Part shown: in pieces, positions 3,045 to 19,579 of the stretch
How positions within the stretch are numbered: position 1 is the stretch's first letter
Layout: each line of letters starts with the position of its first letter
DNA from: Verrucomicrobiota bacterium
GTDB taxonomy: Bacteria; Verrucomicrobiota; Verrucomicrobiia; Palsa-1439
Assembly (NCBI GenBank): GCA_016871575.1
Contig: VHCW01000003.1
Location: 36,835 to 100,834, forward strand
Reading direction: 5' to 3'
DNA: 64,000 nt
Program-made: the position numbers and the translations under genes
Notes under the pieces: model-generated
Told to the model about the DNA's origin: nothing
Databases searched by the model: none
Seen by the model: the letters and a program-made list of their open reading frames with translations, nothing else

Positions 3045-3080
3045 GCCGCCCACTATAGCATGTGCTAGAATCCTCCCGCA

Positions 3081-4517: not shown

Positions 4518-4927
4518 CGTTGCGCGAGGATGCACGGCAGATTCGCCGCGACCGCATAGGCGACGATGATCACATCGCCCCACCACGGATTCCATAGGAA
4601 AAACACCGGCGCGCAGCCGATGGCGCACCAGTGACACAACTCCCCGCGCCACGTCTCGCGAGCGAAACGCTGCCAGTAGTCCGCGCCCTTGCCGGTCACT
4701 TCTCCTTTTGCAAACCCGCCGGAAAACCACCGCGCCGCGTCGGGCAGGTAATCCTTCCAGCGTTTGATCGCGAAGACCTGCTCGTAAAACCGGCCACCGC
4801 GCTCCCACGAGCGGGCCGGGCCGGGATTGAACCACGCGACCGGCATCTTCGTGAACGCCCACGCCAGACCAAGCTGGATGAACAGCCAGCCGCCGACGTT
4901 GAGCGCGATGATGATCTCAATCCGCAC
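4457..4927 (-). CDS. crtO: Glycosyl-4,4'-diaponeurosporenoate acyltransferase (CrtO-like)
   Basis: 156-aa membrane protein with the CrtO C-terminal signature LAQRYNRCRL (S. aureus CrtO has IVQRYNRPRL). It lies immediately downstream of crtQ and overlaps it by 11 bp. It overlaps the convergent SDR gene's 3' end by about 60 bp. Confidence 0.65.
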   Translation of the reverse strand: MRIEIIIALNVGGWLFIQLGLAWAFTKMPVAWFNPGPARSWERGGRFYEQVFAIKRWKDYLPDAARWFSGGFAKGEVTGKGADYWQRFARETWRGELCHWCAIGCAPVFFLWNPWWGDVIIVAYAVAANLPCILAQRYNRCRLARLMARNMPAKTS

Positions 4928-5846: not shown

Positions 5847-5889
5847 TGCCGTTCTCTTTCTACACCCTTGCTGCCCGCCGGGCAACCAC

Positions 5890-5918
5890 TTGAAGACAAT
5901 GCACGCTTCGGGTAAAAT
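5890..5918 (+). promoter_or_regulatory. Near-consensus sigma70-type promoter (TTGAAG-17 bp-TAAAAT) directly abutting the ATG at 5925, implying a leaderless or near-leaderless transcript
   Basis: The -35 TTGAAG is at 5890-5895 and the -10 TAAAAT at 5913-5918. The ATG of the downstream four-helix-bundle gene is at 5925. The AT-rich hexamers stand out in a ~65% GC background. Confidence 0.35.
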
Positions 5919-5924
5919 CAAACC

Positions 5925-6704
5925 ATGCCATCCGACCAATCCGACGGATCTGCCCGATCTTCTGCTGCAAAGCGCCTGCGCCCCAGTGGCGGCTACCGCA
6001 CACTGCACTCCTTCCAAGTGACCACGGTGATCTACGACGGCACAGTTTCATTCTGCGAACGCTTCGTGGACAAGCGTTCCCGGCTCGTGGATCAGATGAC
6101 GCAGGCCGCGCGGTCCGGGCGGCAGAACATCGCCGAGGGCAGCCGGGCGTCCGCGACTTCCAGCCAGACCGAACTGCGCCTGATCAACGTCGCCCGCGCC
6201 AGCCTCGACGAACTGCTGCTCGACTTCGAGGACTACCTCCGCCAACACGGCCTCCCGCAATGGGCCAAGGACAGCCCCGAAGCTCTCGCCGTCCGGCGCG
6301 TGGGCCAGCAATTGGCAAAATCTGATCAGTCGGATCAGTCTAATCCGCCCGATCAATCCGCTCTCTACCGGCCGTGGCTGGCGCACAAAGACCCCGCCGT
6401 GGTCGCCAACACCCTCATCTGTCTCATTCACCAAGCCAACTACCTGCTCGACCAACAAGTGCGCGCCCTGGAAAAGGAATTTGTCACCAAAGGCGGCTAC
6501 AGCGAACAACTCGCCGCCGCCCGCCTCGCTCACCGGTCTGCCAAAGATCGGCCTGCTCCGTCCTCTTCCCCTCCGTCCCCGCCACCCTGCCCGGTCTGTG
6601 GCAGCCTCATGGCCGTGCGCACCGCCAAGAAAGGCCCGCGTGCCGGCAACCAATTCTGGGGCTGCACCAAATATCCCGCCTGCAAAGGCACGAAGCCGGT
6701 CTGA
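5925..6704 (+). CDS. Four-helix-bundle protein (23S rRNA intervening-sequence protein family) fused to a C-terminal topoisomerase-type C4 zinc ribbon
   Basis: N-terminal YRTLHSFQ...NIAEGSRASATSSQTEL..ARASLDELLLDFEDYL resembles TIGR02436-type proteins. The C-terminal CPVCGSLMAVRTAKKGPRAGNQFWGCTKYPACKGT resembles the zf-C4 topoisomerase DNA-binding motif. A low-complexity S/P/D/Q linker joins them. Confidence 0.65.
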   Translation: MPSDQSDGSARSSAAKRLRPSGGYRTLHSFQVTTVIYDGTVSFCERFVDKRSRLVDQMTQAARSGRQNIAEGSRASATSSQTELRLINVARASLDELLLDFEDYLRQHGLPQWAKDSPEALAVRRVGQQLAKSDQSDQSNPPDQSALYRPWLAHKDPAVVANTLICLIHQANYLLDQQVRALEKEFVTKGGYSEQLAAARLAHRSAKDRPAPSSSPPSPPPCPVCGSLMAVRTAKKGPRAGNQFWGCTKYPACKGTKPV

Positions 6705-6804
6705 AACCGGTTGGAGCGGTCGCAAAGAGCCAAAACTGATTTGTCTACTCCGTCCGCTCCGTCCGATTCCCCGCCTTCGCGCTTGTCGCAAAACGGTGCG
6801 GGGG

Positions 6805-8370
6805 TTACTTACCGGCCTTGTCCCACGCCACCACCTTCTTGGCGACGTTCTGGCCGCAGAGGACGACCATCGGCATCCCGCCGCCGGGGTTGACGCTGCC
6901 GCCGACGAAAAACAGGTTCTCGTATTTCGTGCTCTGCTTCGGGGCTTTGAACGCGAGGTTCTTCCAGCGGTCGCTGACGACGCCGTAGATCGAGCCTTTG
7001 TTGGAAAAGTAGTTGGCGCGGATATCGAGCGGCGTCCAGATGTGCTCGTACACGGTGTGTTTGCGGAGGTCTTTGAGGCCCATCCGTTCGAGCTTGTCCA
7101 CGACGCGCTCTTTCAACGCGATGTAATCCTCGCGCTTCAACGGCTGCGCGTCGTTGATGTATGGGATGTGCGGCAGAATCTTGAGGCAATCGCAGCCCGG
7201 CGGGGCAACGGTCGGGTCGGTCTTCGACGCGGCGACGAGGTAGATGGTCGGGTCGGGCGGGAGTTGGTGTTTTTGAAACACCGTGCGGAAATGTTCGCGC
7301 TGGTGCTGTGAAAAAAAGAAATTGTGATGCACCAACTGCGGATACTTGCAGTCAAGCCCAAGGTCGAGCACCAGCCCGGAGCAGGCCGGTTCGAATTTCT
7401 TTTCGAGCTTGGCGACGAAAGCGGCGTCTTCCTTCAGCAGTTCCCGGTAAGCGGGAATGACTTCCATGTTGGAAACGACGATGTCAGCGGCATGGAACAC
7501 GCCATCCTTGGTCACGATGCCGGTGACTCGCTCGCCGCGTGAGGTCACGCGGCCTACAGTGCCCGATGCAACATGGCCAGATGTTGTAGGCCCGCTGACC
7601 CCAGCGGGCGTTGCCGTTGTGCGGATGCCGGCAATCTCACTGTTGAGTTGAACCTTAACACCGAGTTCCTCCATCAACCGCCGCAAACCGAGCGCGATCC
7701 CGTACAGCCCGCCATCCACGTACCAGAGGTCATACCGGAACTGAATCGTCGGCATGCAGTTCATGAACGCGGGCGCCCGGTACGCCGATGAGCCGACGTA
7801 CTTGATGAAATAATCGAAGATGTCCTGCATCTTCTGGGTCTTGAGAAACCGTTTCACTCCGCCGTGCATCGAGCGCAGCAGGTCGAACTGCGGAAATTTG
7901 CTCAAGCCGTAGAACTCGCGGAACTCAGCAGAGGTATCGAGTCCTTGCTGGAAGTAACCGGCGTCGCAGAGGTCGTAGAGCTTGGCGGAGTAATCGAGAA
8001 ACCGCTGAACGTTGGCCGGGTCTTCGCCGACCTTGCGCGCCTCGGCGGCCATCACGGCGGGATCGGGATCGAGGTCCACCACCGTGCCGTCCTCGAAAAA
8101 GTTCCGCCAATGCGGACGCAGCGTGCGAATCGGGATGTAGTCCTTCATCTTCTTGCCCGACCGCTCGAACAACCGCTCGAAGATGTGCGGCAGCGTCAGG
8201 ATGGACGGGCCGAGGTCAAACGTGTAGCCGCGTTCCTTGAGCACGTTGAGCTTGCCACCGATTTTGGAGTTCTTCTCATGAATCGTGACTTCGTAACCTT
8301 CCTGCCACAGCGAAATGGCCGCTGACAATCCGCCCAGCCCGGCCCCGATGACGATGATTTTCTTTTTCAT
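6805..8370 (-). CDS. Phytoene desaturase family protein (CrtI/CrtN/CrtP-like diapocarotenoid desaturase or oxidase)
   Basis: Start MKKKIIVIGAGLGGLSAAISL (FAD Rossmann) at aa 73 of the track ORF. The ATG at 8368-8370 was checked in the sequence. Context is carotenoid genes. Confidence 0.8.
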   Translation of the reverse strand: MKKKIIVIGAGLGGLSAAISLWQEGYEVTIHEKNSKIGGKLNVLKERGYTFDLGPSILTLPHIFERLFERSGKKMKDYIPIRTLRPHWRNFFEDGTVVDLDPDPAVMAAEARKVGEDPANVQRFLDYSAKLYDLCDAGYFQQGLDTSAEFREFYGLSKFPQFDLLRSMHGGVKRFLKTQKMQDIFDYFIKYVGSSAYRAPAFMNCMPTIQFRYDLWYVDGGLYGIALGLRRLMEELGVKVQLNSEIAGIRTTATPAGVSGPTTSGHVASGTVGRVTSRGERVTGIVTKDGVFHAADIVVSNMEVIPAYRELLKEDAAFVAKLEKKFEPACSGLVLDLGLDCKYPQLVHHNFFFSQHQREHFRTVFQKHQLPPDPTIYLVAASKTDPTVAPPGCDCLKILPHIPYINDAQPLKREDYIALKERVVDKLERMGLKDLRKHTVYEHIWTPLDIRANYFSNKGSIYGVVSDRWKNLAFKAPKQSTKYENLFFVGGSVNPGGGMPMVVLCGQNVAKKVVAWDKAGK

Positions 8371-8390
8371 TGTAAGCTCTCTGCACCTGA

Positions 8391-8798
8391 TCACGGAAAG
8401 GGATTGATGACTTTCACGCAGGCCTTCTTGAAATCGGCCTGATTGCGGGTCACGACACTCAGGCCATGGACCAGTGCGGTCGCCGCAATCAGGCTGTCTT
8501 TGATCGGCATCGCCTGACCTTGCCGGCGCAAATCGGCCAGCAGTTGCGCCCAACGCAACCCGCACGCGGCATCCCACGGCACACAAACAATTCGGGCGAC
8601 GCCCTCCCGGAACCAGCGATCCAATTGCTGACGGCGTTTCCCTGCGGGGAGCAGATGAATGCCAAACCGAATCTCGCCGAGGATGATCGGGTCAACCGCA
8701 ATCTCGCGTTCATTCGTGCGCAACCATTCAATCACGGCGGGTTCCGGCGCGGGTTTGGTCGGCTCGCTCAGCACATTGGCGTCAACGAGGTAATTCAC
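8391..8798 (-). CDS. vapC: Type II toxin VapC (PIN domain)
   Basis: 135 aa starting MNYLVDANVLSE, with PIN acidic residues. It overlaps the upstream antitoxin gene by 4 bp. Its stop is 20 bp before the desaturase ATG. Confidence 0.8.
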   Translation of the reverse strand: MNYLVDANVLSEPTKPAPEPAVIEWLRTNEREIAVDPIILGEIRFGIHLLPAGKRRQQLDRWFREGVARIVCVPWDAACGLRWAQLLADLRRQGQAMPIKDSLIAATALVHGLSVVTRNQADFKKACVKVINPFP

Positions 8799-9025
8799 AG
8801 GCTATCCGTGGATTCGGATTCAATCGGGACGAAGAACCCCTTTTGCGGACAGGCCAACAACCAATCCACCAGCCCTTCATTGGGACGCGGCTGCCGGCGG
8901 ACGAGCCGGTACTCGCCCCGGTCGATGCGCTCAACCTCGAACTCCTGACCCGCCTCGATCCCGTCCTGCTGTCGAATCTTGGCGGGCAAGATGATCTGTC
9001 CTTTCGTGGAAACCATGGTTGTCAT
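8795..9025 (-). CDS. vapB: AbrB/MazE/SpoVT-type antitoxin (VapB)
   Basis: 76 aa with MTTMVSTKGQIILPAKIRQ, typical of the swapped-hairpin antitoxin family. It sits upstream of vapC and overlaps it. Confidence 0.7.
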   Translation of the reverse strand: MTTMVSTKGQIILPAKIRQQDGIEAGQEFEVERIDRGEYRLVRRQPRPNEGLVDWLLACPQKGFFVPIESESTDSL

Positions 9026-9086
9026 GCGGAGTAAGATACCGTCTTACGTTGGCGGCGTCAACCTTGCCACTGCCCCAAGTCTTGCC

Positions 9087-9800
9087 CTATTGCTTTCGTT
9101 TCTCCAATTCCGCTTTCGCGAGCTTGTCCTGCGGATTCAACTTCAACGCCTTCTGGAAATACTCTTCCGCCTCGGCGGGTTTGCCGAGCGCGTCGTACGT
9201 CTTGCCGATGTACACGAGGCACGTGCTCCATCCCCAACGCGGCTCAACCGGCCCCGCAGGTTTGCCGGCCTCGGCCTCGAACAGCTTCTCCGCTGCCAGC
9301 AGGAGCTTCAATCCTTCACTCTTCCCGCCCAGCAACCCCGGCCCATAATACCGGTTCATGCCGGCCAAGTATAACACGCGCGGATTATCGGGATTCAACT
9401 TGCGCGCCTGTTTCTCCTGATCCATCAACCGCTTCCCCAGCCAAAATCCCCGCGCCGAGTTCGCCCCGATGCTCAAGCCGTACGTCACACTCAGCAACGC
9501 CCGATTCTCCCCGTTTTGCGGATCAAGCTGCACCGCTCGTTGCAGCGCCGCAATCGTCACCTCCAACGCCTTCGCCGTTTCCGTCCGGCTCGTTTCCCCC
9601 ACCAACCAAAGCAACTGGTGAAACTCCGCTACGCCGCGCCAATAGTGGTTCGTGGACGATGCGAACGTCTTCGCCGCTTTCGCGAATCCCGCGCCATCCC
9701 ACGCCTGATATGCCGCCGCGAACTCCGCGACGCCGGTTTCGATTGGCCCGGCGGCCATCGCCGGCATGGCCAACAACAATACAATGAATCGCCAAATCAT
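9087..9800 (-). CDS. Secreted tetratricopeptide-repeat protein
   Basis: Signal peptide MIWRFIVLLLAMPAMAAG. TPR-like helical repeats. Lys-rich C-terminus. Confidence 0.6.
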   Translation of the reverse strand: MIWRFIVLLLAMPAMAAGPIETGVAEFAAAYQAWDGAGFAKAAKTFASSTNHYWRGVAEFHQLLWLVGETSRTETAKALEVTIAALQRAVQLDPQNGENRALLSVTYGLSIGANSARGFWLGKRLMDQEKQARKLNPDNPRVLYLAGMNRYYGPGLLGGKSEGLKLLLAAEKLFEAEAGKPAGPVEPRWGWSTCLVYIGKTYDALGKPAEAEEYFQKALKLNPQDKLAKAELEKRKQ

Positions 9801-9819
9801 CACTTGACGAACATACACG

Positions 9820-11202
9820 ATGCCGCCGACAATTCACCCATCAATTATGGACTGCGCGCCACTCATCGCCCGGCAACGCCAGTATTTCCAAACCGGTGCC
9901 ACGCGCCCGTTGGCCTACCGGCAGGATCAGCTTCGCCGGCTCCAAGCGGCTATCGAAGCCTGCGAGGTCGCGCTCCTCGACGCGCTCCATGCCGACCTCC
10001 GCAAATCTCCGCACGAAGCCTACACCTCCGAAATCGGTTTCGTCCTCAACGACATCCGCCACGCACTCAAATACCTGCCGGCCTGGATGAACCCAAAGCG
10101 CCGCGGTCTCCCGCTCATGGCGTGGCCGGGCCGCGCCGCGGTCCATTCCGAACCCTACGGCGTCGCCCTCATCATCGGCCCGTGGAACTATCCGTTCCAA
10201 CTTCTCCTCTCGCCGCTCGTCGGCGCAATCGCCGCCGGCAACTGTGTCGTCGTCAAACCATCCGAGTTCGCGCCGCACACTTCCGCAGTCGTGGCAAAAC
10301 TGATCGCCGATACTTTTTCACCCGAATACATCGCCGTCGTCGAGGGCGAACGCGATGCCGCCGAGGCGTTGCTCCGCGAAAAATTCGACGTCATCTTTTT
10401 TACCGGTAGCACCGCCGTTGGCCGCGCTGTGATGACCGCCGCCGCGAAGCATCTCACGCCGGTCACGCTCGAACTCGGCGGCAAGTGCCCGGCCATCGTT
10501 TGCGCCGACGCCCCGCTCGACGTCGCCGCCCGGCGCATCGCATGGGGCAAATTCATGAACGCCGGCCAGACCTGCGTCGCGCCGGACTTCGTTCTGGTGG
10601 ATCGCCGCGTCCGGCAGTTGTTGGTGGACGCGCTCCGGCAAGCCGTTCGCGAGTTCTACGGCGACGACCCGCAACAAAGTCCTGACTATGGCCGCATCAT
10701 CAACCGCCGGCACTTTGACCGGCTCAGCGCCTTCGCGACCGGCAACGCCGATGATCTCTACATCCCGCCCACGATCCTCACCGACACTTCGTGGGACGCG
10801 CCGGTGATGCAGGAGGAAATCTTCGGCCCGATCCTGCCGGTGCTGGAGTTCGACGCGCTGGATGACGCGCTCGCGAAGTTGCGCGACCGGCCGACGCCAC
10901 TGGCGCTGTACCTGTTCACCAACGACCGCGCCACGCAGGAGCGCGTGATTGCCGGAACGCGCAGCGGCGGGGCATGCCTCAACGACACCATCGTCCAGAT
11001 TATTGGTCACGATCTCCCGTTCGGCGGCGTCGGCGAAAGCGGCATGGGCCGGTATCACGGCAAGGCGAGCTTCGACTGCTTCAGTCACCGGCGATCCGTC
11101 GTGCGGCGCTCGCTGTTGTTCGATTCCCGTTTCCGTTATCCGCCACCGAAGTTGTCGCTGGAGAAATTGAAGAAGGCCTACCGGTTCTTGCTGGGCGGCT
11201 GA
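9820..11202 (+). CDS. Aldehyde dehydrogenase family (ALDH3-like), candidate diapocarotenoid aldehyde dehydrogenase
   Basis: ALDH motifs LELGGKCP and FMNAGQTCVAPD (catalytic Cys), with the second catalytic motif EEIFGPILPV. An alternative start is at 9847 (MDCAPLIARQRQYF). Sits with the carotenoid genes. Confidence 0.8.
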   Translation: MPPTIHPSIMDCAPLIARQRQYFQTGATRPLAYRQDQLRRLQAAIEACEVALLDALHADLRKSPHEAYTSEIGFVLNDIRHALKYLPAWMNPKRRGLPLMAWPGRAAVHSEPYGVALIIGPWNYPFQLLLSPLVGAIAAGNCVVVKPSEFAPHTSAVVAKLIADTFSPEYIAVVEGERDAAEALLREKFDVIFFTGSTAVGRAVMTAAAKHLTPVTLELGGKCPAIVCADAPLDVAARRIAWGKFMNAGQTCVAPDFVLVDRRVRQLLVDALRQAVREFYGDDPQQSPDYGRIINRRHFDRLSAFATGNADDLYIPPTILTDTSWDAPVMQEEIFGPILPVLEFDALDDALAKLRDRPTPLALYLFTNDRATQERVIAGTRSGGACLNDTIVQIIGHDLPFGGVGESGMGRYHGKASFDCFSHRRSVVRRSLLFDSRFRYPPPKLSLEKLKKAYRFLLGG

Positions 11203-11606: not shown

Positions 11607-12695
11607 TTGATGACGTTCCTCTGGTTCATCATCGGGTTGGGCGTGCTGGTGGCCGGGGCGGAGTTATTGGTGCGCGGGGCGTCGCGGCTGGCACTGGCGT
11701 TTGGGATTTCGCCGCTGGTGATCGGGTTGACCATTGTGGCGTTCGGCACGAGCACGCCGGAGGTGGCGGTGGGCGTGAAGGCGGTGTTGGTGAACCAGCC
11801 GGATTTGGTGACCGGCAACTGTCTGGGGAGCACGATGTTCAATGTGCTGCTGATTCTCGGCGCGTGCGCGGTGATCGCGCCGTTGGTGGTGGCGCAGCAA
11901 CTGGTCCGTCTCGACGTGCCCATTATGATTGGGGTGCATGTGCTGTTGCTGGCGTTGGGGTTGGATGGGAAGATCAGCCGACTCGACGGGCTGATTTTGT
12001 TTGCGGGCGTCGTGGCCTACAGCATTTTCGCGATTCGCAAAGGGAAAAAGGAATCACCCGCCGTGACGGCGGAGTACGACACGGCCTACGGCAAACGGAA
12101 GCCGGGGCGCTCGCCGGGCGAGTTGGCGTTACACGCGGGGCTGATCGTGGGCGGACTGGCGTTGTGCGTGTTGGGCGCGCGGTGGATGGTGGACAGCGCG
12201 GTGATGCTGGCGCGGGCGTGGGGCGTGAGCGAGTTGGTGATCGGGTTGACGATTGTGGCGGCCGGCACGTCGATGCCGGAAGTGGCGACGTCCATCGTGG
12301 CGACGTTCCGCGGCCAGCGCGACATCGCCATCGGGAATGTCGTCGGGAGCAATATTTTCAACATCCTCGGCATCGTCGGGGTGGCCGGCCTGGTCGCGCC
12401 GGACGGGATTGCGGTGGCGCCGTCGGTGTTGCGGTTTGACTTGCCGGTGGCCATTGCGGTGTGCGTGGCGTGTCTGCCGATCTTTTTTACCGGTCACTCG
12501 ATCTCGCGATGGGAAGGCGCGGTGTTTCTCGGCTACTACGTGGCGTACACGGCGTATCTGATCTTGGCCGCGCAACAGCACGATGCGTTGCCGGCGTTCA
12601 GCGCGGTGATGAAATGGTTCGTCCTGCCGCTGACGGTTGTGACGCTGGCGGTGGTCACGTGGCGCGCCGTGCGCGCCAGGCAGGAGGCACCATGA
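11607..12695 (+). CDS. Ca2+/Na+ (cation) antiporter, CaCA/YrbG family
   Basis: Two alpha-repeat motifs (GTSTPEVAV and GTSMPEVATS). Multi-TM, 362 aa. Confidence 0.8.
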   Translation: MMTFLWFIIGLGVLVAGAELLVRGASRLALAFGISPLVIGLTIVAFGTSTPEVAVGVKAVLVNQPDLVTGNCLGSTMFNVLLILGACAVIAPLVVAQQLVRLDVPIMIGVHVLLLALGLDGKISRLDGLILFAGVVAYSIFAIRKGKKESPAVTAEYDTAYGKRKPGRSPGELALHAGLIVGGLALCVLGARWMVDSAVMLARAWGVSELVIGLTIVAAGTSMPEVATSIVATFRGQRDIAIGNVVGSNIFNILGIVGVAGLVAPDGIAVAPSVLRFDLPVAIAVCVACLPIFFTGHSISRWEGAVFLGYYVAYTAYLILAAQQHDALPAFSAVMKWFVLPLTVVTLAVVTWRAVRARQEAP

Positions 12696-12924
12696 CGCGA
12701 TTCATTACCAACGCCAAGCCGTTTCGCTGGGTCATCGCGGCGCTGAAGAAACTGATTGCGCAGCCGAAGGCCGTTTAGCCGCTGATGCACACGTCTTCAC
12801 GGCGGGCGATGGCTCGGAGCGGCGGCAGTTGCGCCGTTGTTTTCGACGGAGGTTGTGCCATACTGACGGCTGTGAAAATTCTGCCTCACATCCGGTTGAT
12901 CAACTCATCGAGGAGCGGACGGCG

Positions 12925-13392
12925 ATGACAGCGGAAAGTGCTGCGGAGCAAATCGGGCGGTTGGTTCGGGCGCAGCCTTACGGCGTGTTGTGCACGCAGA
13001 GCGAGGCGCAGCCGTACGGGTCGCTGGTGGCGTTGGCGGCGACGGAGGACCTGACGACGCTGGTGTTCTCGACGCCGATCACGACGCGGAAGTACCGGTT
13101 GCTCGTCGAGTGCGCGCAGGTGGCCGTGGTCATTGACAGCCGGTCGGGCGCGCCGGACGAACTGATGGAGGTCGAGGCGGTGACGGCCACAGGTCGGGCG
13201 GAGCAGGCGTTGCCGGGCGCGGAGTTCGAGCGCTGGGCGGGGTTGCTGATTGCGCGGCATCCGCACTTGGCGGGGTTTGTGCAGGCGGAATCGTCGGCGC
13301 TGTTTCGGGTCGCGGTGGTGCGTTATTTTCATGTCAGCCGGTTTCAGGAGGTTGTGCAGTGGGTGCCGGTTCCCGCTACATCATCCCGTTAG
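12925..13392 (+). CDS. Pyridoxamine 5'-phosphate oxidase-like FMN-binding split-barrel protein
   Basis: ATG at 12925 preceded by GAGGAG. 155 aa with a PNPOx-like pattern. Confidence 0.55.
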   Translation: MTAESAAEQIGRLVRAQPYGVLCTQSEAQPYGSLVALAATEDLTTLVFSTPITTRKYRLLVECAQVAVVIDSRSGAPDELMEVEAVTATGRAEQALPGAEFERWAGLLIARHPHLAGFVQAESSALFRVAVVRYFHVSRFQEVVQWVPVPATSSR

Positions 13393-15653
13393 CGCAGGTC
13401 GATCAATCCCACGAACCGCTCGTGGGAGCGAAGGCGGCGCGCCTGGCCATCCTCTCCAAGACCGGTCACCCGGTTGCGCCGGGGTTTTGCGTGGCGGTCG
13501 GCGCTTACGAATGTTTTCTGGCCGAGTCCCGTCTGGAGACCCTGATCCGCATGGAACTGGATCGCAAACGATTCGAGGACATGCGCTGGGAGGAATTGTG
13601 GGACGCGGCGCTGCGGATTCGGGCCGCGTTCAACGCGCACCCCGTGCCGGCGGCGGTGGCGGCCGCGGTGGACGAGGCGCTGGCGGGTTACCCGGCGGAT
13701 CTCGCGTGGGCGGTGCGGTCGTCGGCGCCGGGCGAGGACGCCGCGCACCGGTCGTTTGCCGGGTTGCATGAGTCGTACGTGGGCGTGGTGGGCCGGGCAG
13801 CCGTGCTCGACGCGCTGCGGCTGGTCTGGGCGTCGTTGTGGTCGGATGCGGCGATGCTGTACCGGCGCGAGGTCGGGCTTGATCCCGCGCACAGCCGGAT
13901 GGCGGTGCTGGTCCAGGCCATGCGCACCGCTCCGGTCTCGGGCGTGGCGTTCGGCTGCGATCCCCGGCAATTGTCGCGCGAGATCGCCATCATCGAAGCC
14001 GTGCCGGGAGTCTGCGCGGGATTGGTGGATGGCGAGATTGATCCCGACCGTTGGCAACTGCGCCGCGCCGACGGCACGGTGGTCGCGTGGCAACCCGGCC
14101 AGCGCGAGCCGGCCGGCACTCCCGGTCCGTTGCTCGACGGCGCTGACATCAGCCATTTGCTGCGCGTGATTTCGTCGGTCGAGGAACAGTTCCGCTGGCC
14201 GCCGGACATTGAATGGACGGGGCGCGCGGCAGAGTTCACCCTGCTCCAGGCCCGGCCGGTCACCACGGCCGCGCCTGCCGGCGATGACAAACGCGAATGG
14301 TATCTCACGCTCCGGCCCGGCCTGGCCCGGTTGCGCAAGCTGCGGACGCGCGTCGCCGACGAGTTGATTCCCGCGCTCGCGGCGGAAGGCGCGCGCTTGG
14401 CCGCCGCGAACCTCGACGCGCACACCGAGGCGCAGTTGGCCGATGCGATTGCCGAACGCCGCGACGCGCTCCAGCGATGGACGAAAATCTACTGGGACGA
14501 GTTCATTCCGTTCGCCCACGGCGTGCGGCGGTTGGCGGTGTACTACAACGACGCGGTGCGCCCGCGCGACCCGTATGAGTTTGTCGGGCTGCTGCAGGGC
14601 GAAGATCTCCTGGCGAGCCAGCGCAACGCCGCGCTGCACGCCATCGCCGACCAAGTCCGCCAACAGCCGCCGCTGGCCGCCACCCTCGACCAAGCCGGCC
14701 ACTGGCTGCCCGCGGAGCCGGAACGATGGGCCGACACGGTTCGGGCGGTCACCGGCGGCGAAGTGTTTCTGGCGGCGTTCCGGCGCGTCATGGAAAACGC
14801 GCTCGACCTCGCCTACGACACCGCGCGTCTGGCCGACCGGCCCGACCTGATTCTGCGGTCGGTTCTGGAACTGGCGCGCGCCACCACGCGACCGCACGGT
14901 GCGGCGACGGAGTCGCCCAGCACCACCGTCGCGACCCTCGAACAGCGGCTGCTGGCGGCCGTCGGTCCGGCCCGGCAGGAAGAAGCGCGCGAGACACTCG
15001 CCACGGCCCGGCTCAGTTGGCGGCTGCGCGATAACGACAACCTGTTGCTGTCGCGGATCGAGTCGCAATTGATCCGAGCAATCGAAATCGCCGCACGACG
15101 GCTCAAAGCCGCGGGCCGGCTGGCGGCCAACGCCCCGGTTTCCGCCAAGGTGGCGGAACTGGTCATCGCCGCGTTACGCGACCGTTCCGGTGCCGTGCTG
15201 GTCCTGCCGGTGGAACAACCGGCCGCCGCAACGGTCGCCGTTGCCGGGACGCGCGCCGAAACCCCTCGGCAACTGACCGGCCAACCCGCCGCCGCCGGCT
15301 TGGCAACCGGCAAAGTCCGGTGCGTCCGCCGCACGGAAGACTTGGGACGATTTCAAGCCGGGGAAGTGCTGGTATGCGATGCCATCCAACCGATGATGAC
15401 CCATCTCGTGCCGTTGGCCTGTGCGGTTGTGGAACGCCGCGGCGGCATGCTCATCCACGGCGCGATCATCGCCCGCGAGCTGGGCATCCCCTGCGTCAAC
15501 GGCGTCCCCGATGTCGTCGAACTGCTGCCCGACGGCCAAGTGGTGACCGTGGATGGTTACTTGGGAATTGTGACTGTCGGCCCACCCGACTTCGACCTGG
15601 AACTGGCCGCCCGCCAGCAGCCCCGCGCGCGGCGGGCCGATCATTTGCCATGA
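13359..15653 (+). CDS. PEP-utilising enzyme, rifampin-phosphotransferase-like architecture (N-terminal PEP/pyruvate-binding ATP-grasp, C-terminal phosphohistidine swivel domain)
   Basis: 764 aa. N-terminus LVGAKAARLAILSKTGHPVAPGFCV (PPDK_N-like). C-terminus GGMLIHGAIIARELGIPCVNGV (PEP-utilisers mobile domain). The stop overlaps the next start as ATGA. Confidence 0.75.
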   Translation: MGAGSRYIIPLAQVDQSHEPLVGAKAARLAILSKTGHPVAPGFCVAVGAYECFLAESRLETLIRMELDRKRFEDMRWEELWDAALRIRAAFNAHPVPAAVAAAVDEALAGYPADLAWAVRSSAPGEDAAHRSFAGLHESYVGVVGRAAVLDALRLVWASLWSDAAMLYRREVGLDPAHSRMAVLVQAMRTAPVSGVAFGCDPRQLSREIAIIEAVPGVCAGLVDGEIDPDRWQLRRADGTVVAWQPGQREPAGTPGPLLDGADISHLLRVISSVEEQFRWPPDIEWTGRAAEFTLLQARPVTTAAPAGDDKREWYLTLRPGLARLRKLRTRVADELIPALAAEGARLAAANLDAHTEAQLADAIAERRDALQRWTKIYWDEFIPFAHGVRRLAVYYNDAVRPRDPYEFVGLLQGEDLLASQRNAALHAIADQVRQQPPLAATLDQAGHWLPAEPERWADTVRAVTGGEVFLAAFRRVMENALDLAYDTARLADRPDLILRSVLELARATTRPHGAATESPSTTVATLEQRLLAAVGPARQEEARETLATARLSWRLRDNDNLLLSRIESQLIRAIEIAARRLKAAGRLAANAPVSAKVAELVIAALRDRSGAVLVLPVEQPAAATVAVAGTRAETPRQLTGQPAAAGLATGKVRCVRRTEDLGRFQAGEVLVCDAIQPMMTHLVPLACAVVERRGGMLIHGAIIARELGIPCVNGVPDVVELLPDGQVVTVDGYLGIVTVGPPDFDLELAARQQPRARRADHLP

Positions 15654-17224
15654 GAAACTTGATCCTCGTGCTCGGCGATCAACTCGACGCGAAGTCGGCA
15701 GCCTTCGACGGTTTCGACCCGAAACAGGACGCCGTCTGGATGGCGGAGGTCAGCGACGAGGCGGAACACGTCTGGTCGCACAAGGCGCGCATCGCCATCT
15801 TCCTCTCGGCGATGCGGCATTTCCGCGACGAGTTGCGCGCGCGGGGGATCACGGTGCACTACCGGGAGTTGTGTGATTCGACCTTTGGTGCGGAACTGAC
15901 GAAATCCATCCGGCAACTCAAACCACAAAGTGTTATCGTGGTTGAACCCGGCGAGTGGCGGGTACAGGAGGAATTGAAACGCGCGGTGCCGGGTTTGGAG
16001 ATTCGACCTGACCGGCATTTTTTGTATTCGCGCGAAGAGTTCGCAGCACACGCCGCCGGGCGCAAACAGTTGCGGTTGGAATTTTTCTACCGCGAGATGC
16101 GCCGCAAACACAACGTGCTGATGGACGGCGATAAGCCCGTCGGTGGCACGTGGAACTTCGACAAGGAAAACCGCGCCACCTTCGGCAAAGAGGGGCCGGG
16201 GTTGATTCCGAAGCCGGTCGGGTTCAAGCCGGATACGACGACGCGCGAGGTGTTGGCGCTGGTCGAGAAACGATTCGCGAAGCATCCCGGCCGCCTGGAC
16301 AAGTTTGATTGGCCGGTCACGCGCGTGCAAGCGAAAGAGGCGCTCGACGACTTCATTGCGAACCGGCTGGCGGATTTCGGCCGGGTCGAGGACGCGATGT
16401 GGACAGGGCAGCCGTTGTTGTACCATTCCCGGCTGTCGGCAGCGCTGAACCTGAAATTACTTGACCCGCGCGAGGGGATCGCCGCCGCTGTAGGCCGACT
16501 CTGTGAGTCGGCGAAGGAGGGGCGCGCCGCTTCGCAGAAGCGGCCTACAACAGGCGCGCCGTTGCCGGCGGTGGAGGGATTTGTTCGGCAACTGCTCGGC
16601 TGGCGCGAATATGTACGGGGCGTGTACTGGCAGTTCATGCCGGGTTACGCCTCACTCAACGCGCTCGAAGCCAAGCGGAAGTTGCCGGAGTTTTATTGGA
16701 CGGGTGACACGGAGATGAATTGTTTGCGCGAGGTGATTGGGCAGACGCTCGAACTCGGATTCGCGCATCACATCCAGCGGTTGATGGTGACCGGCACGTA
16801 CGCGTTGTTACTTGGCGTGGATCCGGTCGAGGTGCACAAGTGGTATCTGGCGGTGTACGTGGACGCGGTGGAATGGGTCGAGTTGCCCAACGTGCTTGGC
16901 ATGTCGCAATACGCCGACGGCGGGATCATGGCGTCGAAACCCTACATCGCGACCGGCAAATACATTCAGCGGATGAGCAATTACTGTCAAGGTTGCCGGT
17001 TCAAGACGGACAAGGCGACCGGCCCGGAAGCGTGTCCGTTCACGACGTTGTATTGGGATTTTTTGCTGCGCCACGAGAAACTGCTGAAGCAAAATCAACG
17101 AATGGCGTTGCAGGTGAAAAATCTGGCGCGGCTTGACGCTGATCAGCGCGCGGCGATTCGCCGGCAAGCCGACGCTATTCGCGTGGTGCCGGCAGGTGCA
17201 TCTGGAACGAAACGTAGTGGGTGA
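15650..17224 (+). CDS. FeS-BCP / CryB-PhrB-type cryptochrome-photolyase family protein (COG3046), candidate (6-4) photolyase
   Basis: Start MRNLILVLGDQLD at aa 111 of the track ORF. The C-terminal four-Cys cluster YCQGCRF...EACPF is typical of Fe-S bacterial cryptochrome/photolyases. Confidence 0.8.
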   Translation: MRNLILVLGDQLDAKSAAFDGFDPKQDAVWMAEVSDEAEHVWSHKARIAIFLSAMRHFRDELRARGITVHYRELCDSTFGAELTKSIRQLKPQSVIVVEPGEWRVQEELKRAVPGLEIRPDRHFLYSREEFAAHAAGRKQLRLEFFYREMRRKHNVLMDGDKPVGGTWNFDKENRATFGKEGPGLIPKPVGFKPDTTTREVLALVEKRFAKHPGRLDKFDWPVTRVQAKEALDDFIANRLADFGRVEDAMWTGQPLLYHSRLSAALNLKLLDPREGIAAAVGRLCESAKEGRAASQKRPTTGAPLPAVEGFVRQLLGWREYVRGVYWQFMPGYASLNALEAKRKLPEFYWTGDTEMNCLREVIGQTLELGFAHHIQRLMVTGTYALLLGVDPVEVHKWYLAVYVDAVEWVELPNVLGMSQYADGGIMASKPYIATGKYIQRMSNYCQGCRFKTDKATGPEACPFTTLYWDFLLRHEKLLKQNQRMALQVKNLARLDADQRAAIRRQADAIRVVPAGASGTKRSG

Positions 17225-17333
17225 TCTTGCCGTTGTCGTTGCAGATCGGGCTGACCGGATTGGCGGCCTTGCCCGGCGGAAGCGAATACCAGACAAAGCT
17301 ATCGAGGACTTGTGGGTCGCGCTGGTTGGGGAC
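17172..17333 (-). pseudogene. Remnant of a LOV/PAS gene (C-terminal ~50 codons only), directly after the nitroreductase stop and in the same frame
   Basis: The minus-strand translation after the nitroreductase TGA reads VPNQRDPQVLDSFVWYSLPPGKAANPVSPICNDNGKITHYVSFQMHLPAPRE*. That matches the C-terminus of the 2619..3044 LOV protein (SPICDDNGKITHYVSFQLH). It is a ~57-bp near-identical DNA repeat of 2662-2718, with no start codon. Confidence 0.4.
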
Positions 17334-17990
17334 TCAGTGGATCTGGATCAGTGCGGCGGACGGGAAACGCACTTTCGGTGCGGCGGCGTACTTGTCGTCG
17401 GCACTCCGGTAACCCAGCGCACAGCAGACGACCGCTGCGCAGCCTTGCGCCGGCAAGCCGAGAATCTTATCGAACTCCGCCGGCACGAAGCCTTCCATCG
17501 GGCAGGCGTCCACGCCGAGCAACGCGGCGCTGGTCAGCAGATTGCCCAGCGCGATGTAGCATTGCCGGGCCGTCCAATGCGGAATGCGCGCCTTGGCGTC
17601 GTCGCCGAGCAGGCTGCCGGCCATCATCTGCCGGTAATCGGCGAGCGAGTCGCGGTTGACGCCGCGGACTTCGACAATGCGGTCGAGAAACCGGTCGATC
17701 TCCGCTTCCGTCATCGCGGTGCGGGCGGCGAAGACGATGAAGTGGGAGGCGTTGACGACCTGCGGTTGGTTCCAGGCGTGCGGCAGGAGCTTCGCGCGGG
17801 TGGCGGGATCGTTGACGACAATGAAGCGATACGGCTGGAGGCCAAACGAGGAGGCGGACAACGCGAGCGCCTCCTGCAACGCGTTCCATGTCGCGGCCGG
17901 TAGCTGGCGGTTCGGATCGAAGACCTTGGTGGCGTAGCGCCAATTCAGAGCGCTTAACAATTCATGGGAGTCAATGGGTTGGTTGTTCAT
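17334..17990 (-). CDS. NAD(P)H nitroreductase family protein
   Basis: Start MNNQPIDSHELLSALNWRYATKVF with an AGAGGAAA RBS upstream. Matches the nitroreductase fold pattern. Confidence 0.8.
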   Translation of the reverse strand: MNNQPIDSHELLSALNWRYATKVFDPNRQLPAATWNALQEALALSASSFGLQPYRFIVVNDPATRAKLLPHAWNQPQVVNASHFIVFAARTAMTEAEIDRFLDRIVEVRGVNRDSLADYRQMMAGSLLGDDAKARIPHWTARQCYIALGNLLTSAALLGVDACPMEGFVPAEFDKILGLPAQGCAAVVCCALGYRSADDKYAAAPKVRFPSAALIQIH

Positions 17991-18097
17991 GGTTTCCTCT
18001 TTGATTGTGTGTGATGTTGGCTGCGAAGATCGCACAAAGCAGAGGCGACTGCCAGTCGCGGCTTGCCGGAACCCGGCTTTTCGGATAGAAACGCCTC

Positions 18098-19579
18098 ATG
18101 CCAAAGAGCGTACTCATCATCGGCGCGGGGCCGGGCGGACTGGCTTCGGCGATGTTGCTGGCCAAGGCCGGGCTGGACGTCACCATCATCGAGAAACAAC
18201 CGCGCGTCGGCGGGCGCACCTCGGCCATCGAGGGCGATGGTTACCGGTTCGATCTCGGGCCGACGTTTTTCCTCTACCCGCAGATCTTGGAAGAAATCTT
18301 CGCCGCGTGTGGTCGCGACCTGCACCGCGAAGTGCCGATGAAGAAGCTCGACCCGCAATACCAGCTCATCTTCGGCGCGGGCGGCGAACTGCTGTGCACG
18401 CCGGACATCGAGCGGATGGTGGCCGAGATTGCGAAGATTGCGCCCGACGATGCGCCGCAGTTCCGTCGGTTCATGGATTACAACCGGGTGAAGCTGGAGA
18501 AAATTTCGCCTTGTCTGCAATCGCCGTTCCTCGGCTGGACGAGCCTGCTGCAAGCGCGGCTGCTGGCCGTGCTGCCGTACCTGAAGCCGTGGAAATCGCT
18601 GCACGCCGAACTGGCCGGGTACTTCAAAGATCCGCGCCTGCAACTGGCGTTCACGTTCCAGTCGAAATACCTCGGCATGTCGCCCTTCCAGTGCCCGAGC
18701 TTGTTCTCGATTCTGTCGTTCCTCGAATACGAGCATGGCGTGTTTCACCCGATGGGCGGATGCAACGCGCTCACGGCCGGCATGGCGCGCGTCGCCAACG
18801 AACTCGGCGCGAAGATTCGTCTGAACGAGCCGGTTGAGGAAGTTTTGTTTGAAGGTCGCCGCGCTGTCGGCGTCCGCACCCCGACCGGCGAGCACCGTGC
18901 CGACGCCGTCGTGGTCAATGCCGACTTCGGCCATGCGATGACGAAGCTCGTGCCGAACCGGCTGCGCCGGCGGTGGACGGATGAAACGATTGCGAAGAAG
19001 AAGTTCTCCTGCTCAACATTCATGCTCTATCTGGGCATCGAAGGCCGGTATGACCAACTTGCGCATCACAACATCTACGTTGCAAAAGATTACCGGCAGA
19101 ACCTCGACGACATCGAGAACCGCCACGTGCTCACCGAGGACACATCGTTCTACGTCGAGAATCCGTGCCGGACCGACGACACGATGGCGCCGGCCGGGCA
19201 CAGCACGTTATACGTGTTGGTGCCGGTCAGCCATCAGCATCCGAACATTGATTGGAGCAAGGAGCGCGACCGTTACCGGCAAATGACCCTGCGCCAACTC
19301 GCAAAGATCGGCCTCCACGATGTCGAGCGCCGCATCCGGTTCGAGCGCGTCGTGACGCCCGTCGAGTGGGAGAACAACGTTGGCATCTACAAGGGGGCGA
19401 CGTTCAACCTCGCCCACAACCTCGGCCAGATGCTGCATTTCCGTCCTCAGAACCGGTTCGAGGAATTCGAGCGGATGTATCTGGTCGGTGGCGGCACGCA
19501 TCCCGGCAGCGGGTTGCCGGTGATCTTCGAGTCGGCCAAGATCAGCAGCCGGTTGTTGCGCGAAGATCTCGAACGGTGA
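18098..19579 (+). CDS. Phytoene desaturase family protein (CrtI/CrtN-like)
   Basis: 493 aa. N-terminal IIGAGPGGLASAMLLAKAG FAD motif. Second member of the family in the window. Confidence 0.8.
   Translation: MPKSVLIIGAGPGGLASAMLLAKAGLDVTIIEKQPRVGGRTSAIEGDGYRFDLGPTFFLYPQILEEIFAACGRDLHREVPMKKLDPQYQLIFGAGGELLCTPDIERMVAEIAKIAPDDAPQFRRFMDYNRVKLEKISPCLQSPFLGWTSLLQARLLAVLPYLKPWKSLHAELAGYFKDPRLQLAFTFQSKYLGMSPFQCPSLFSILSFLEYEHGVFHPMGGCNALTAGMARVANELGAKIRLNEPVEEVLFEGRRAVGVRTPTGEHRADAVVVNADFGHAMTKLVPNRLRRRWTDETIAKKKFSCSTFMLYLGIEGRYDQLAHHNIYVAKDYRQNLDDIENRHVLTEDTSFYVENPCRTDDTMAPAGHSTLYVLVPVSHQHPNIDWSKERDRYRQMTLRQLAKIGLHDVERRIRFERVVTPVEWENNVGIYKGATFNLAHNLGQMLHFRPQNRFEEFERMYLVGGGTHPGSGLPVIFESAKISSRLLREDLER

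Follow-up and report, generated by a model that had tools for sequence, protein, structure and literature searches.

The closest described relative of the kinase analysed herein is the Listeria rifampin phosphotransferase RPH-Lm (PDB 5hv1, 5fbs; PMC4844700), which has the same domain order. The catalytic Lys, Arg, Thr/Ser, Glu and His of RPH-Lm are conserved in the present kinase, which is, however, approximately 100 aa shorter than RPH. Unlike RPH-Lm, the family of this kinase is found in environmental, uncultured phyla and in light/oxidative-stress neighbourhoods, and this kinase has an obligate split-barrel partner gene; we know of no PNPOx-like partner for RPH. PigC, RedH and HapC, the prodiginine-condensing enzymes, use ATP to activate a pyrrolic substrate; like the present kinase, they combine PPDK_N and swivel domains in a single chain. 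The ATP-grasp and phosphohistidine domains of PEP synthase and pyruvate phosphate dikinase are also homologous to those of the kinase, but these enzymes contain a TIM barrel and a central His domain, whereas the kinase has no TIM barrel and carries its His domain at the terminus. HpeHI, CreHI and PpsAB are two-component phenolic dikinases whose small hydroxylated substrates are phosphorylated by an RPH-type swivel mechanism (PMC12167813), and they show that the RPH scaffold has been reused for many substrates. The ATP-grasp domain of HpeI (PDB 9goj) matches that of the kinase in sequence (E 3.9e-25) and in fold (E 3e-15). However, in the phenolic dikinases a separate polypeptide forms the ATP-grasp domain, whereas all three domains are fused in the kinase; their genes are located in aromatic catabolic clusters, whereas the second gene here encodes an unrelated split-barrel protein; and the T/S of their T/SxxGGxxxH swivel motif is Glu692 in the kinase.

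In the present study, a stretch of 64,000 nt from a Verrucomicrobiota genome (hereafter, the window) was analysed, and the unit of interest is a three-gene operon encoding a PNPOx-like protein, an RPH-type dikinase and an FeS-BCP photolyase, in that order (Table 1). The kinase gene starts before the PNPOx-like gene has ended, and therefore the unit comprises three genes rather than two. The original prediction of an overlap between the kinase stop and the photolyase start was correct, while the upstream PNPOx-like gene, conserved in 78 of 78 loci, was absent from it. The gene calls of NCBI agree with ours, giving the same length for an identical kinase protein from a metagenome-assembled genome (MAG) and the same PNPOx-like protein. 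Downstream, the operon is bounded by a convergent gene of the nitroreductase family, and because of this gene the ORF at 17133-17903 on the + strand, which has no Pfam match and only short and weak tblastn matches, was rejected as spurious. Carotenoid genes, an SDR-DUF2867 gene and a LOV-like PAS gene are located around the operon within the window. Herein, we propose, with a probability of approximately 0.6, that the kinase is an RPH-like dikinase of a module that has been recruited repeatedly into photo-oxidative-stress neighbourhoods and that is here in one operon with a photolyase.

Table 1. Features of the operon and its downstream boundary (positions in the window)
Feature	Position	Strand	Details
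PNPOx-like split-barrel gene	12925..13392	+	155 aa; RBS GAGGAG at 12910-12915
PNPOx-like/kinase overlap	13359..13392	+	34 nt, different frames; gene end and GTG start
RPH-like kinase gene	13359..15653	+	764 aa; GTG start; AGGAGG at 13346-13351
Kinase ATP-grasp (PPDK_N) domain	13359..14276	+	residues 1-306; Pfam, alignment to RPH-Lm
Kinase central all-helical domain	14277..15266	+	residues 307-636; AF2 model, without Pfam match
Kinase phosphohistidine swivel domain	15267..15608	+	residues 637-750; Pfam PEP-utilizers
Catalytic His700 codon (CAC), swivel domain	15456-15458	+	alignment to RPH-Lm
ATGA, kinase stop/photolyase start overlap	15650..15653	+	TGA 15651-15653, ATG 15650-15652
FeS-BCP (PhrB/CryB-type) (6-4) photolyase gene	15650..17224	+	524 aa; Pfam DPRP, PDB matches
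Nitroreductase-family gene, convergent	17334..18035	-	Pfam Nitroreductase, E 1.3e-24

The kinase has the RPH-type domain order, namely ATP-grasp, helical central domain and C-terminal phosphohistidine swivel. The original prediction had distinguished this order from that of PEP synthase, and Pfam, NCBIfam, PDB sequence searches and Foldseek all agree. In the profile search, residues 20-306 matched PPDK_N (E 2.5e-54) and residues 665-736 matched the PEP-utilizers mobile domain (E 1.9e-19), and no canonical PEP synthase was revealed; no PEP/pyruvate TIM-barrel domain was found by Pfam. When the AF2 model (pLDDT 85, with a helical central domain) was compared using Foldseek, RPH-Lm 5hv1 was the best match and the sole convincing full-length one (E 9e-31), followed by pyruvate phosphate dikinases at E 4e-9 or weaker, and RPH-Lm was also the best PDB sequence match (E 7.5e-46 for 5hv2). 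Residues K25, R120, S139 and E285 align with K22, R117, T136 and E297 of RPH-Lm, which are nucleotide-phosphate residues, and together with His700 they are invariant among 55 homologues. The RPH-Lm segment containing His825, GGLMTHGAVIARE, is the counterpart of GGMLIH700GAIIARE in the alignment, and the mean pairwise identity of the swivel domain across phyla is 80%. The 11-aa C-terminal tail of the kinase, QPRARRADHLP, is missing in 14 of 14 aligned homologues.

The names given to homologues by JGI, e.g. 'pyruvate, water dikinase', and the NCBIfam PEP-synthase models, which are the top partial matches, would place the kinase in central metabolism, as a PEP synthase or pyruvate phosphate dikinase. 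This assignment is extremely improbable, as the kinase is without a TIM-barrel domain, its His domain is C-terminal and not central, and its scores fall far under the cut-offs (242.7 vs 598 for NF005057 and 232 vs 739.75 for TIGR01418). It is also very improbable that the kinase is an antibiotic-resistance RPH that inactivates rifamycins and lies beside the photolyase by chance. Despite the best sequence and fold matches in the PDB to Listeria RPH and the presence of NF041857 among the top NCBIfam matches, the kinase scores far under the equivalog cut-offs (228.1 bits vs 999 for NF041857 and 151 vs 1700 for NF000283), these models match the N-terminal and swivel domains only, and the PEP-synthase models score equally well. 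The shorter length of the kinase, its obligate PNPOx-like partner and the very high conservation of its central domain across uncultured phyla also argue against a rifamycin-inactivating enzyme. With E values of 2e-57 and 2.6e-53, the NCBIfam models of the prodiginine enzymes match the N-terminal domain, but the kinase is far under their cut-offs (195 vs 1350 and 181 vs 1300), and no prodiginine genes were found near the kinase.

The central domain (residues 307-636) is family-specific and presumably forms the substrate site. Only 401 matches to this domain were obtained using phmmer among 1.84 billion representatives, and the 150 matches listed were all either proteins of approximately 700-790 aa with the domain at approximately 300-620 or shorter fragments. 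Sub-regions 307-430 and 526-600 are conserved as strongly as the ATP-grasp domain; invariant motifs of the kinase include FIPFAHG and SWRLRDxDN. No sequence similarity was detectable between the central domain and the rifampin-binding domain; Foldseek aligned the two with a large rmsd, using one predicted model.

The constant partner of the kinase is the PNPOx-like gene, and the evolutionary core of the operon is its first two genes. Among 80 related kinase loci from more than 12 phyla (flanks of up to 10 kb, often shorter), the PNPOx-like gene was immediately upstream of the kinase in all 78 with upstream DNA, and the two genes usually overlapped, commonly by a short stretch; the extremes of the junction were an overlap of 30 nt and a gap of 54 nt. 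Neither a third constant gene nor a conserved small ORF was found around the pair in these loci. Thus, the kinase and the PNPOx-like gene constitute a widespread, self-contained two-gene module. Its conservation across these phyla, at 50-80% identity, makes a common cellular metabolite a more probable substrate than a niche xenobiotic.

The PNPOx-like protein scored 35.2 bits with Pfam PNPOx_N (gathering cut-off 28.1), and its AF2 model (pLDDT 88.8) has a split-barrel fold. The heme-binding proteins MSMEG_6519, Pden_1323 and HOZ/HugZ ranked highest in Foldseek, ahead of FMN and F420 binders, and the fold agreement with many split-barrel proteins reached a TM of 0.7-0.8. The predicted fold is shared with MSMEG_6519, Pden_1323, HOZ (At3g03890), HugZ, PdxH and general stress protein 26, but the sequence identity to these proteins is only 8-21%, and no significant sequence match was found among solved structures. 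The protein has invariant residues of its own (C23, C63, H112, Q141 and W146). Its TRK motif aligns with SRK of E. coli PdxH, whereas the top fold matches bind heme, and the protein may be a flavin or heme carrier. PdxH proper was rejected, as the profile comparison with E. coli PdxH gave E 0.25; PdxH chains are also longer, at 199-218 aa vs 155 aa. In NCBIfam, only a weak match to an F420-PPOX subfamily (17.9 vs 79) was observed.

The third gene, predicted originally to encode a CryB/PhrB-type Fe-S photolyase, appears from its sequence to be a genuine FeS-BCP (6-4) photolyase. The protein matches Pfam DPRP (E 2.9e-77) and, at full length, A. tumefaciens PhrB (4dja; E 4e-154, residues 1-510) and CryB (3zxs; E 1e-142). 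Four cysteines, C358, C446, C449 and C462, align with those of PhrB as the [4Fe-4S] cluster ligands and are nearly invariant in an alignment of photolyase homologues.

The relationship between the kinase and the photolyase is looser than the overlap in the window would suggest. An FeS-BCP gene was present within 10 kb of the kinase in 14 of the 80 loci, adjacent or nearly so in 12. This frequency is far above chance, which was estimated to give fewer than 0.4 loci, assuming that a 5 Mb genome carries at most 2 copies and that each locus has approximately 12 kb of flank, and FeS-BCP is the most frequent facultative neighbour of the kinase. The association is distributed over several phyla and at least three arrangements, giving at least five lineage-and-arrangement combinations, and tight same-strand operons were observed in KSB1 (L062), Nitrospiraceae (L056), Gammaproteobacteria (L020 and L024) and Acidobacteria (L032). 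These operons, the rank of FeS-BCP among the neighbours and the ATGA overlap would be expected if the kinase were devoted to the photolyase or cryptochrome as its partner. In that case, the coupling would reflect stoichiometric cooperation, and the kinase would phosphorylate a repair intermediate, the enzyme itself, or the antenna or cofactor of the enzyme, e.g. a ribityl-lumazine or a flavin. However, no FeS-BCP gene was found in the fetched flanks of the other 66 kinase loci, neither the kinase nor its PNPOx-like partner was found when 80 loci (876 kb) around the PhrB proteins most similar to this photolyase were examined, and the order and orientation of kinase and FeS-BCP genes vary. Co-occurrence of the pair is upheld as an enrichment around the kinase. 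In the nearest relative (L011, 87% identity), the kinase stop is followed by a DoxX_2 gene and lies approximately 540 nt before the PhrB ATG; this PhrB is a pseudogene whose frame contains a stop and which has lost the invariant EGFxRQxxGWRE motif through a deletion of 40 aa, and yet the kinase/PNPOx-like cassette is intact. Among the related loci, the ATGA overlap was found in the present genome alone. A dedicated partnership is therefore unlikely, and the specific tight pairing suggested by the original prediction is not borne out. The overlap is real, yet recent and local. A recent deletion in this Verrucomicrobia genome probably joined the 3' end of the kinase gene to the photolyase start, and the fused junction would ensure co-expression without implying physical or catalytic dependence.

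With regard to function, the kinase most probably follows the dikinase mechanism of rifampin phosphotransferase. First, His700 of the swivel domain at the C-terminus would receive the beta-phosphate of ATP. Second, the swivel domain would move to the helical central domain and phosphorylate a bound molecule, presumably a small one, yielding AMP, Pi and the phospho-substrate. The split-barrel protein, co-translated with the kinase, probably handles that molecule as well, by oxidation, reduction or presentation. Another reading is that the substrate of the kinase is a protein.

The neighbourhood of the pair suggests the circumstances under which this chemistry may be used. Light-inducible operons include SDR, FAD-dependent oxidoreductase, CryB, MerR/LitR, LOV and RudS genes (PMC9758184; PMC11417400), and the photolyase operons of non-phototrophic bacteria that are controlled by LitR/CarH, LOV or ChrR-sigmaE (PMC9758184, PMC5241685, PMC11417400) share companion gene kinds, including carotenoid genes, with the loci analysed herein; a full-text literature search, including these reports, found neither the RPH-like kinase nor the PNPOx-like protein among light-inducible regulon members. 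Near the kinase pair, CPD photolyase was present in 3 of the 80 loci, CarH-type B12-binding proteins in 5 (W-x9-EH motif in 5/5), LOV-type PAS-PP2C proteins in 5 (GxNCRFLQ in 2/5) and RudS in 2. A photolyase, a photoreceptor-like gene or RudS was observed in 22 of the 80 loci. SOD (3 loci), GPx (4), OvoA-like (3), DUF1295 (3), CIA30 (8), SDR-DUF2867 (10) and renalase-like FAD oxidoreductase (8) genes were also observed, and carotenoid genes recur beside the pair. However, 19 of the 40 loci with at least 15 kb fetched had none of the recurrent light/oxidative-stress neighbours, and therefore the link to light is a tendency and not a rule. With approximately half of the well-flanked loci without such neighbours, the association might be incidental, resulting from co-transfer on mobile islands or MAG sampling bias, and the module might serve an unrelated catabolic or salvage function, e.g. 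the phosphorylation of phenolics. The activity of characterised relatives on phenolics and other xenobiotics (PMC12167813) is in line with this explanation, and the high identity across phyla is compatible with horizontal transfer. We nevertheless consider an incidental association doubtful, as chance does not account for an FeS-BCP enrichment of this size, which arose in at least five lineage-and-arrangement combinations, several independent and specific light markers (CPD photolyase, CarH-type B12-binding, LOV-type and RudS proteins) recur, and no recurring catabolic genes (ring-cleavage, carboxylases, transporters) were found beside the pair in the 80 loci. The repeated location of the module beside photolyase, photoreceptor-like, carotenoid and antioxidant genes suggests instead that it probably helps the cell to respond to light or to photo-oxidative stress, and its expression might be induced by light. 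SDR and fasciclin proteins are common neighbour families and are not light-specific.

In the window, the 3' end of a gene for a PNPOx-like split-barrel protein, overlooked in the original prediction, overlaps the start of the gene for the rifampin phosphotransferase (RPH)-type kinase by 34 nt, and the kinase TGA (15651-15653) in turn overlaps the photolyase ATG (15650-15652); therefore, the unit is a three-gene operon with overlaps at both junctions (Table). In NCBI, a Verrucomicrobia MAG has a protein annotated as hypothetical that is identical to the kinase in sequence and length (P0001), and the NCBI annotation of the PNPOx-like protein is also identical (P0121). The photolyase ORF matched DPRP in Pfam (E 2.9e-77), A. 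tumefaciens PhrB over residues 1-510 (E 4e-154), and R. sphaeroides CryB (E 1e-142), and all four cluster cysteines are in place (C358, C446, C449, and C462). Judged by its sequence, this ORF is unambiguously assigned as an FeS-BCP, i.e. a PhrB/CryB-type (6-4) photolyase, and the predicted stop/start overlap (ATGA, 15650-15653) with such a gene was confirmed. The operon is embedded among carotenoid-type, SDR-DUF2867, and LOV-like PAS genes. The genes at 4457-11202 and 18098-19579 resemble a pathway for a C30 (staphyloxanthin-like) glycosylated, acylated carotenoid. The closest similarity of the PAS protein is to LOV domains from the LOV-PP2C proteins that neighbour the kinase in other genomes; at the LOV GxNCRFLQG site it carries GQTPRILQG, where Pro replaces the flavin-adduct cysteine.

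Table. Positions of the operon genes and of surrounding genes in the window
Feature	Position	Strand	Remarks
LOV-like PAS gene, stand-alone	2619-3053	-	144 aa; divergent from the SDR-DUF2867 gene
SDR-DUF2867	3081-4517		
CrtO-type acyltransferase	4457-4927		
GT2 glycosyltransferase	4917-6017		
Amine-oxidase-type desaturase or oxygenase	6805-8586		
Aldehyde dehydrogenase	9820-11202		
PNPOx-like gene	12925..13392	+	155 aa; GAGGAG box 9 nt before ATG
Kinase ORF	13359..15653	+	764 aa; GTG start 7 nt past AGGAGG box
Photolyase ORF	15650..17224	+	524 aa
Nitroreductase-family gene	17334-18035	-	convergent, downstream of photolyase, before crtI
CrtI-family desaturase	18098-19579		

Pfam assigned residues 20-306 of the kinase to PPDK_N (E 2.5e-54) and residues 665-736 to the PEP-utilizers mobile domain (E 1.9e-19), with no TIM-barrel PEP/pyruvate domain and no match of any kind in residues 307-636. 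The domain order is thus that of RPH and not that of PEP synthase, as originally predicted. The closest solved structures by sequence were those of the Listeria enzyme, RPH-Lm (5hv2, E 7.5e-46; 5hv1 and 5fbs, E 1.4e-45), in alignments spanning the ATP-grasp and swivel domains only. An AlphaFold2 model built with 55 homologues as input (mean pLDDT 85.3, pTM 0.84) comprises an alpha/beta ATP-grasp, a long central domain that is entirely helical, and a small C-terminal domain rich in beta structure, and the comparison of a predicted structure with RPH, which the original prediction had recommended, gave RPH-Lm 5hv1 as the top and sole convincing full-length match in the PDB (Foldseek, E 9e-31), followed by pyruvate phosphate dikinases (E 4e-9 or weaker). 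Mutagenesis of RPH-Lm has shown that K22, R117, T136, E297, and H825 matter (PMC4844700), and the equivalent kinase residues, K25, R120, S139, E285, and H700, are all invariant in the 55-sequence alignment. All NCBIfam models scored the kinase far under their cut-offs, including PEP synthase (NF005057, 243 vs 598), RPH (NF041857, 228 vs 999), RedH (195 vs 1350), and PigC (181 vs 1300). Therefore, the kinase is an RPH-type dikinase by architecture, and is not RPH, PEP synthase, or prodiginine ligase. The matches to RPH-Lm might suggest a true rifampin resistance enzyme, and this is highly improbable in view of the RPH model score and a drug-binding domain without sequence similarity. A canonical PEP synthase or PPDK is practically ruled out by the missing TIM barrel, the terminal His domain, and the low model scores. 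Database names are generic or wrong; for example, "pyruvate, water dikinase" for the kinase family and "pyridoxamine 5'-phosphate oxidase" for the partner are corrected by these results.

A forward scan of one genome per GTDB species, with the homologue alignment as query, revealed at least 545 stretches encoding a kinase relative, of which the best 80 loci were kept with flanks of up to 10 kb per side; the presence of genes was determined by tblastn with the window proteins. All 80 loci are from MAGs, with no cultured isolates among them, and belong to Planctomycetota, Verrucomicrobiota, Acidobacteriota, Chloroflexota, Nitrospirota, NC10, Gemmatimonadota, Gammaproteobacteria, Myxococcota, other Deltaproteobacteria, Bacteroidota, Eisenbacteria, Latescibacteria, KSB1, and Krumholzibacteriia. 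The kinases of these best 80 loci are 48-87% identical to the window kinase, and their partners 46-90% identical to the PNPOx-like protein of the window, over more than 12 phyla; such identity is unusually high and points to strong constraint, to horizontal transfer, or to both. The PNPOx-like gene is directly 5' of the kinase gene in 78 loci, with junctions that vary between an overlap of 30 nt and a gap of 54 nt, and the remaining two have no upstream DNA. Clustering of all ORFs of the 80 loci revealed no third constant gene or conserved small ORF in the cassette, and full-text literature searches gave no paper that describes the pair. The RPH-type scaffold itself is known; the novel finding is an RPH-type dikinase that combines a substrate domain of its own with an obligate partner of the split-barrel type.

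FeS-BCP genes were observed inside the fetched flanks of 14 of the 80 kinase loci, adjacent or nearly so in 12, and in three arrangements: downstream and co-directional (Verrucomicrobia L011, Gammaproteobacteria L020 and L024, and Acidobacteria L032), upstream and divergent (Planctomycetes L001, L006, L007, and L008, and Polarisedimenticolia L076), or upstream and co-directional (KSB1 L062 and Nitrospiraceae L056). If a 5 Mb genome has no more than two FeS-BCP copies and each locus approximately 12 kb of flank, fewer than 0.4 co-locations are expected by chance in 80 loci, compared with the 14 observed; therefore, the association is real, even when reduced to about six independent lineage/arrangement events. 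However, a reverse scan of metagenomes with the PhrB alignment as query showed that both cassette genes are absent from all 80 loci (876 kb) around the closest relatives of the window photolyase (47-64% identity). In the closest relative, L011 (87% kinase identity to the window), the kinase gene ends at 12259 and is separated by a DoxX_2 membrane-protein gene (12332-12682) from the PhrB ATG at 12801. This PhrB gene (12801-14285) contains an in-frame stop (..ESFR*LKPQ..) and lacks 40 residues, including the invariant EGFxRQxxGWRE motif. Either it is a pseudogene or the MAG was misassembled here; the PNPOx-kinase cassette of L011 is intact. Together with the 11 C-terminal kinase residues QPRARRADHLP, present in none of 14 aligned homologues, the L011 arrangement suggests that a recent deletion fused the kinase 3' end to the photolyase start. 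The coupling is real but young in the window genome, and the cassette and the photolyase are mutually independent. Of the tight coupling originally predicted, the ATGA overlap and the non-chance proximity remain, and in the proposed test of co-occurrence across genomes, an FeS-BCP accompanied a minority of the kinase loci and the kinase none of the PhrB loci. Thus, a kinase serving as dedicated partner of the photolyase, as the overlap might imply, is improbable, and an obligate partnership is ruled out by the forward and reverse counts and by L011; the eye-catching overlap is a young, local operon fusion and not a conserved partnership. A DoxX_2 gene was also observed 3' of the kinase gene in L010 and L077, and that of L011 is positioned exactly at the site of the ATGA in the window.

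The central domain of the kinase (residues 307-634) was matched by just 401 of 1.84 billion representative proteins (phmmer, E 1e-3 or better). The 150 matches listed are all proteins of approximately 700-790 aa in which it spans roughly residues 300-620, or shorter fragments, and no "Rosetta stone" fusion was observed among these or among the 120 best homologues of each cassette protein. In the 55-sequence alignment, mean pairwise identity was 0.64 for the ATP-grasp (1-306), 0.65, 0.35, and 0.62 for the central segments 307-430, 431-525, and 526-600, respectively, and 0.80 for the swivel (637-750). A large part of the presumed substrate site is therefore constrained like the catalytic domains across phyla, which we read as pointing to a single common substrate. 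The precomputed Pfam family PF27448, assigned to many homologues (P0018, P0032, P0054, and others) and not to the window kinase, may correspond to this central domain. Regarding the partner, PNPOx_N was matched with 35.2 bits (cut-off 28.1), and the AlphaFold2 model is a split beta-barrel (pLDDT 88.8). Heme binders ranked at the top in Foldseek (MSMEG_6519, 1.5e-10; Pden_1323, At3g03890/HOZ, ChuZ, and HugZ), only slightly ahead of FMN-, FAD-, and F420-binding members within two orders of magnitude, and thus the modelled fold leaves the choice between flavin and heme as cofactor ambiguous. Searches of PDB sequences with phmmer and profiles gave no significant match. The segment T54-R55-K56 aligns below threshold, as a lead only, with SRK of E. 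coli PdxH, in a region that contacts the FMN phosphate in that enzyme; the invariant residues include C23, C63, H112, Q141, and W146. The partner is not a PdxH orthologue.

The recurrent neighbours of the cassette, defined by ORF clusters of the 80 loci with Pfam on cluster representatives, are all facultative. In addition to the FeS-BCP photolyase, these families are Fasciclin (11 loci), SDR-DUF2867 (10), Renalase-like FAD oxidoreductase and CIA30 (8 each), SDR (7), ABC1 (6), B12-binding proteins with a CarH-type W-x9-EH motif and LOV-type PAS-PP2C phosphatases (5 each, the latter with GxNCRFLQ in 2), glutathione peroxidase and MerR regulators (4 each), Class I-type CPD photolyase, Fe/Mn SOD, OvoA-like DinB_2 + FGE-sulfatase + methyltransferase, DUF1295, and HiPIP (3 each), and RudS (TudS-DUF1722) and DCC1 (2 each). 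A photolyase, photoreceptor-like gene, or RudS was observed in 22 of the 80 loci, and at least one recurrent family (ABC1 excluded) in 42; several of these families are shared with the PhrB loci that have no cassette. Light-inducible operons of Pseudomonas include SDR, FAD-dependent oxidoreductase, CryB, MerR/LitR, and LOV genes (PMC9758184), and RudS has been placed in photolyase and carotenoid operons that respond to light (PMC11417400). Positions 141-11576 of L005 encode on one strand a CarH-type B12-binding protein, the PNPOx-like protein, the kinase, glutathione peroxidase, a renalase-like FAD oxidoreductase, an OvoA-like protein (DinB_2 + FGE-sulfatase + methyltransferase), SDR-DUF2867, and an amine oxidase, an array that looks like a complete light/oxidative-stress operon. 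The B12-binding proteins with the W-x9-EH motif are about 310-500 aa long (L005, L007, L011, L054, and L056). A MerR DNA-binding domain was not detected by Pfam in L054, the only representative scanned, and these proteins may be AdoB12 photoreceptor modules that stand alone.

Herein, we propose that the cassette is a self-contained RPH-type module that has been recruited to light/oxidative-stress neighbourhoods, the photolyase overlap being young and local, and we assign this reading a probability of roughly 0.6. Its architecture and phosphotransfer route are well supported, and its physiological role only moderately so. With RPH (PMC4844700) and the phenolic dikinases HpeHI, CreHI, and PpsAB (PMC12167813) as models, the grasp domain would take up ATP, His700 would attack the beta-phosphate, the gamma-phosphate would leave as Pi, and the phosphorylated swivel domain would then shift to the central domain and phosphorylate an oxygen of a bound small molecule. 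A redox step on the substrate, or its presentation to the kinase, is probably the task of the co-translated split-barrel protein. The extreme cross-phylum conservation suggests a ubiquitous metabolite, and the gene context suggests one relevant to light or photo-oxidative stress; candidates are a flavin or lumazine, a tetrapyrrole or bilin, vitamin B6, or a quinol. More tentatively, the pair might represent previously unrecognised, widespread damage-control enzymes of the bacterial light/photo-oxidative stress response, which would phosphorylate and oxidise or reduce such a universal, light-sensitive or photosensitising metabolite so as to inactivate, trap, or salvage it; if true, this would add a new biochemical arm of photoprotection beside photolyases, carotenoids, and antioxidant thiols. 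Alternatively, the light-gene context might be incidental and the cassette might serve an unrelated catabolic or salvage role. This is rather unlikely, and is conceivable because light markers are missing from half of the well-flanked loci (19 of the 40 with at least 15 kb fetched have no recurrent family). The repeated siting of the recruited module by photolyases and photoreceptor-like, RudS, SOD, glutathione peroxidase, ovothiol-like, and carotenoid genes provides a testable lead to photoprotection or cofactor damage control. To our knowledge, every characterised RPH-type dikinase performs distinctive chemistry, i.e. antibiotic inactivation, phenol activation, prodiginine condensation, or starch phosphorylation, and the present family combines its own conserved substrate domain and obligate partner with a distribution over more than a dozen mostly uncultured phyla.

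Within the window, scans of the intergenic regions for a shared operator or promoter motif, sigma-70 promoters, and terminators gave nothing beyond background, and PADLOC gave no match to anti-phage defence systems. A plus-strand ORF at 17133-17903 (256 aa), for which Pfam gave no family and whose tblastn matches are all short and weak, is probably spurious because the nitroreductase gene occupies the minus strand. Upstream of the cassette, the ATG of a 28-aa ORF at 12692-12778 (+), MTRFITNAKPFRWVIAALKKLIAQPKAV, is preceded by an AGGAGG box and overlaps the TGA of an Na/Ca-exchanger gene in another ATGA; this ORF could encode a small coupled peptide or could have arisen by chance.
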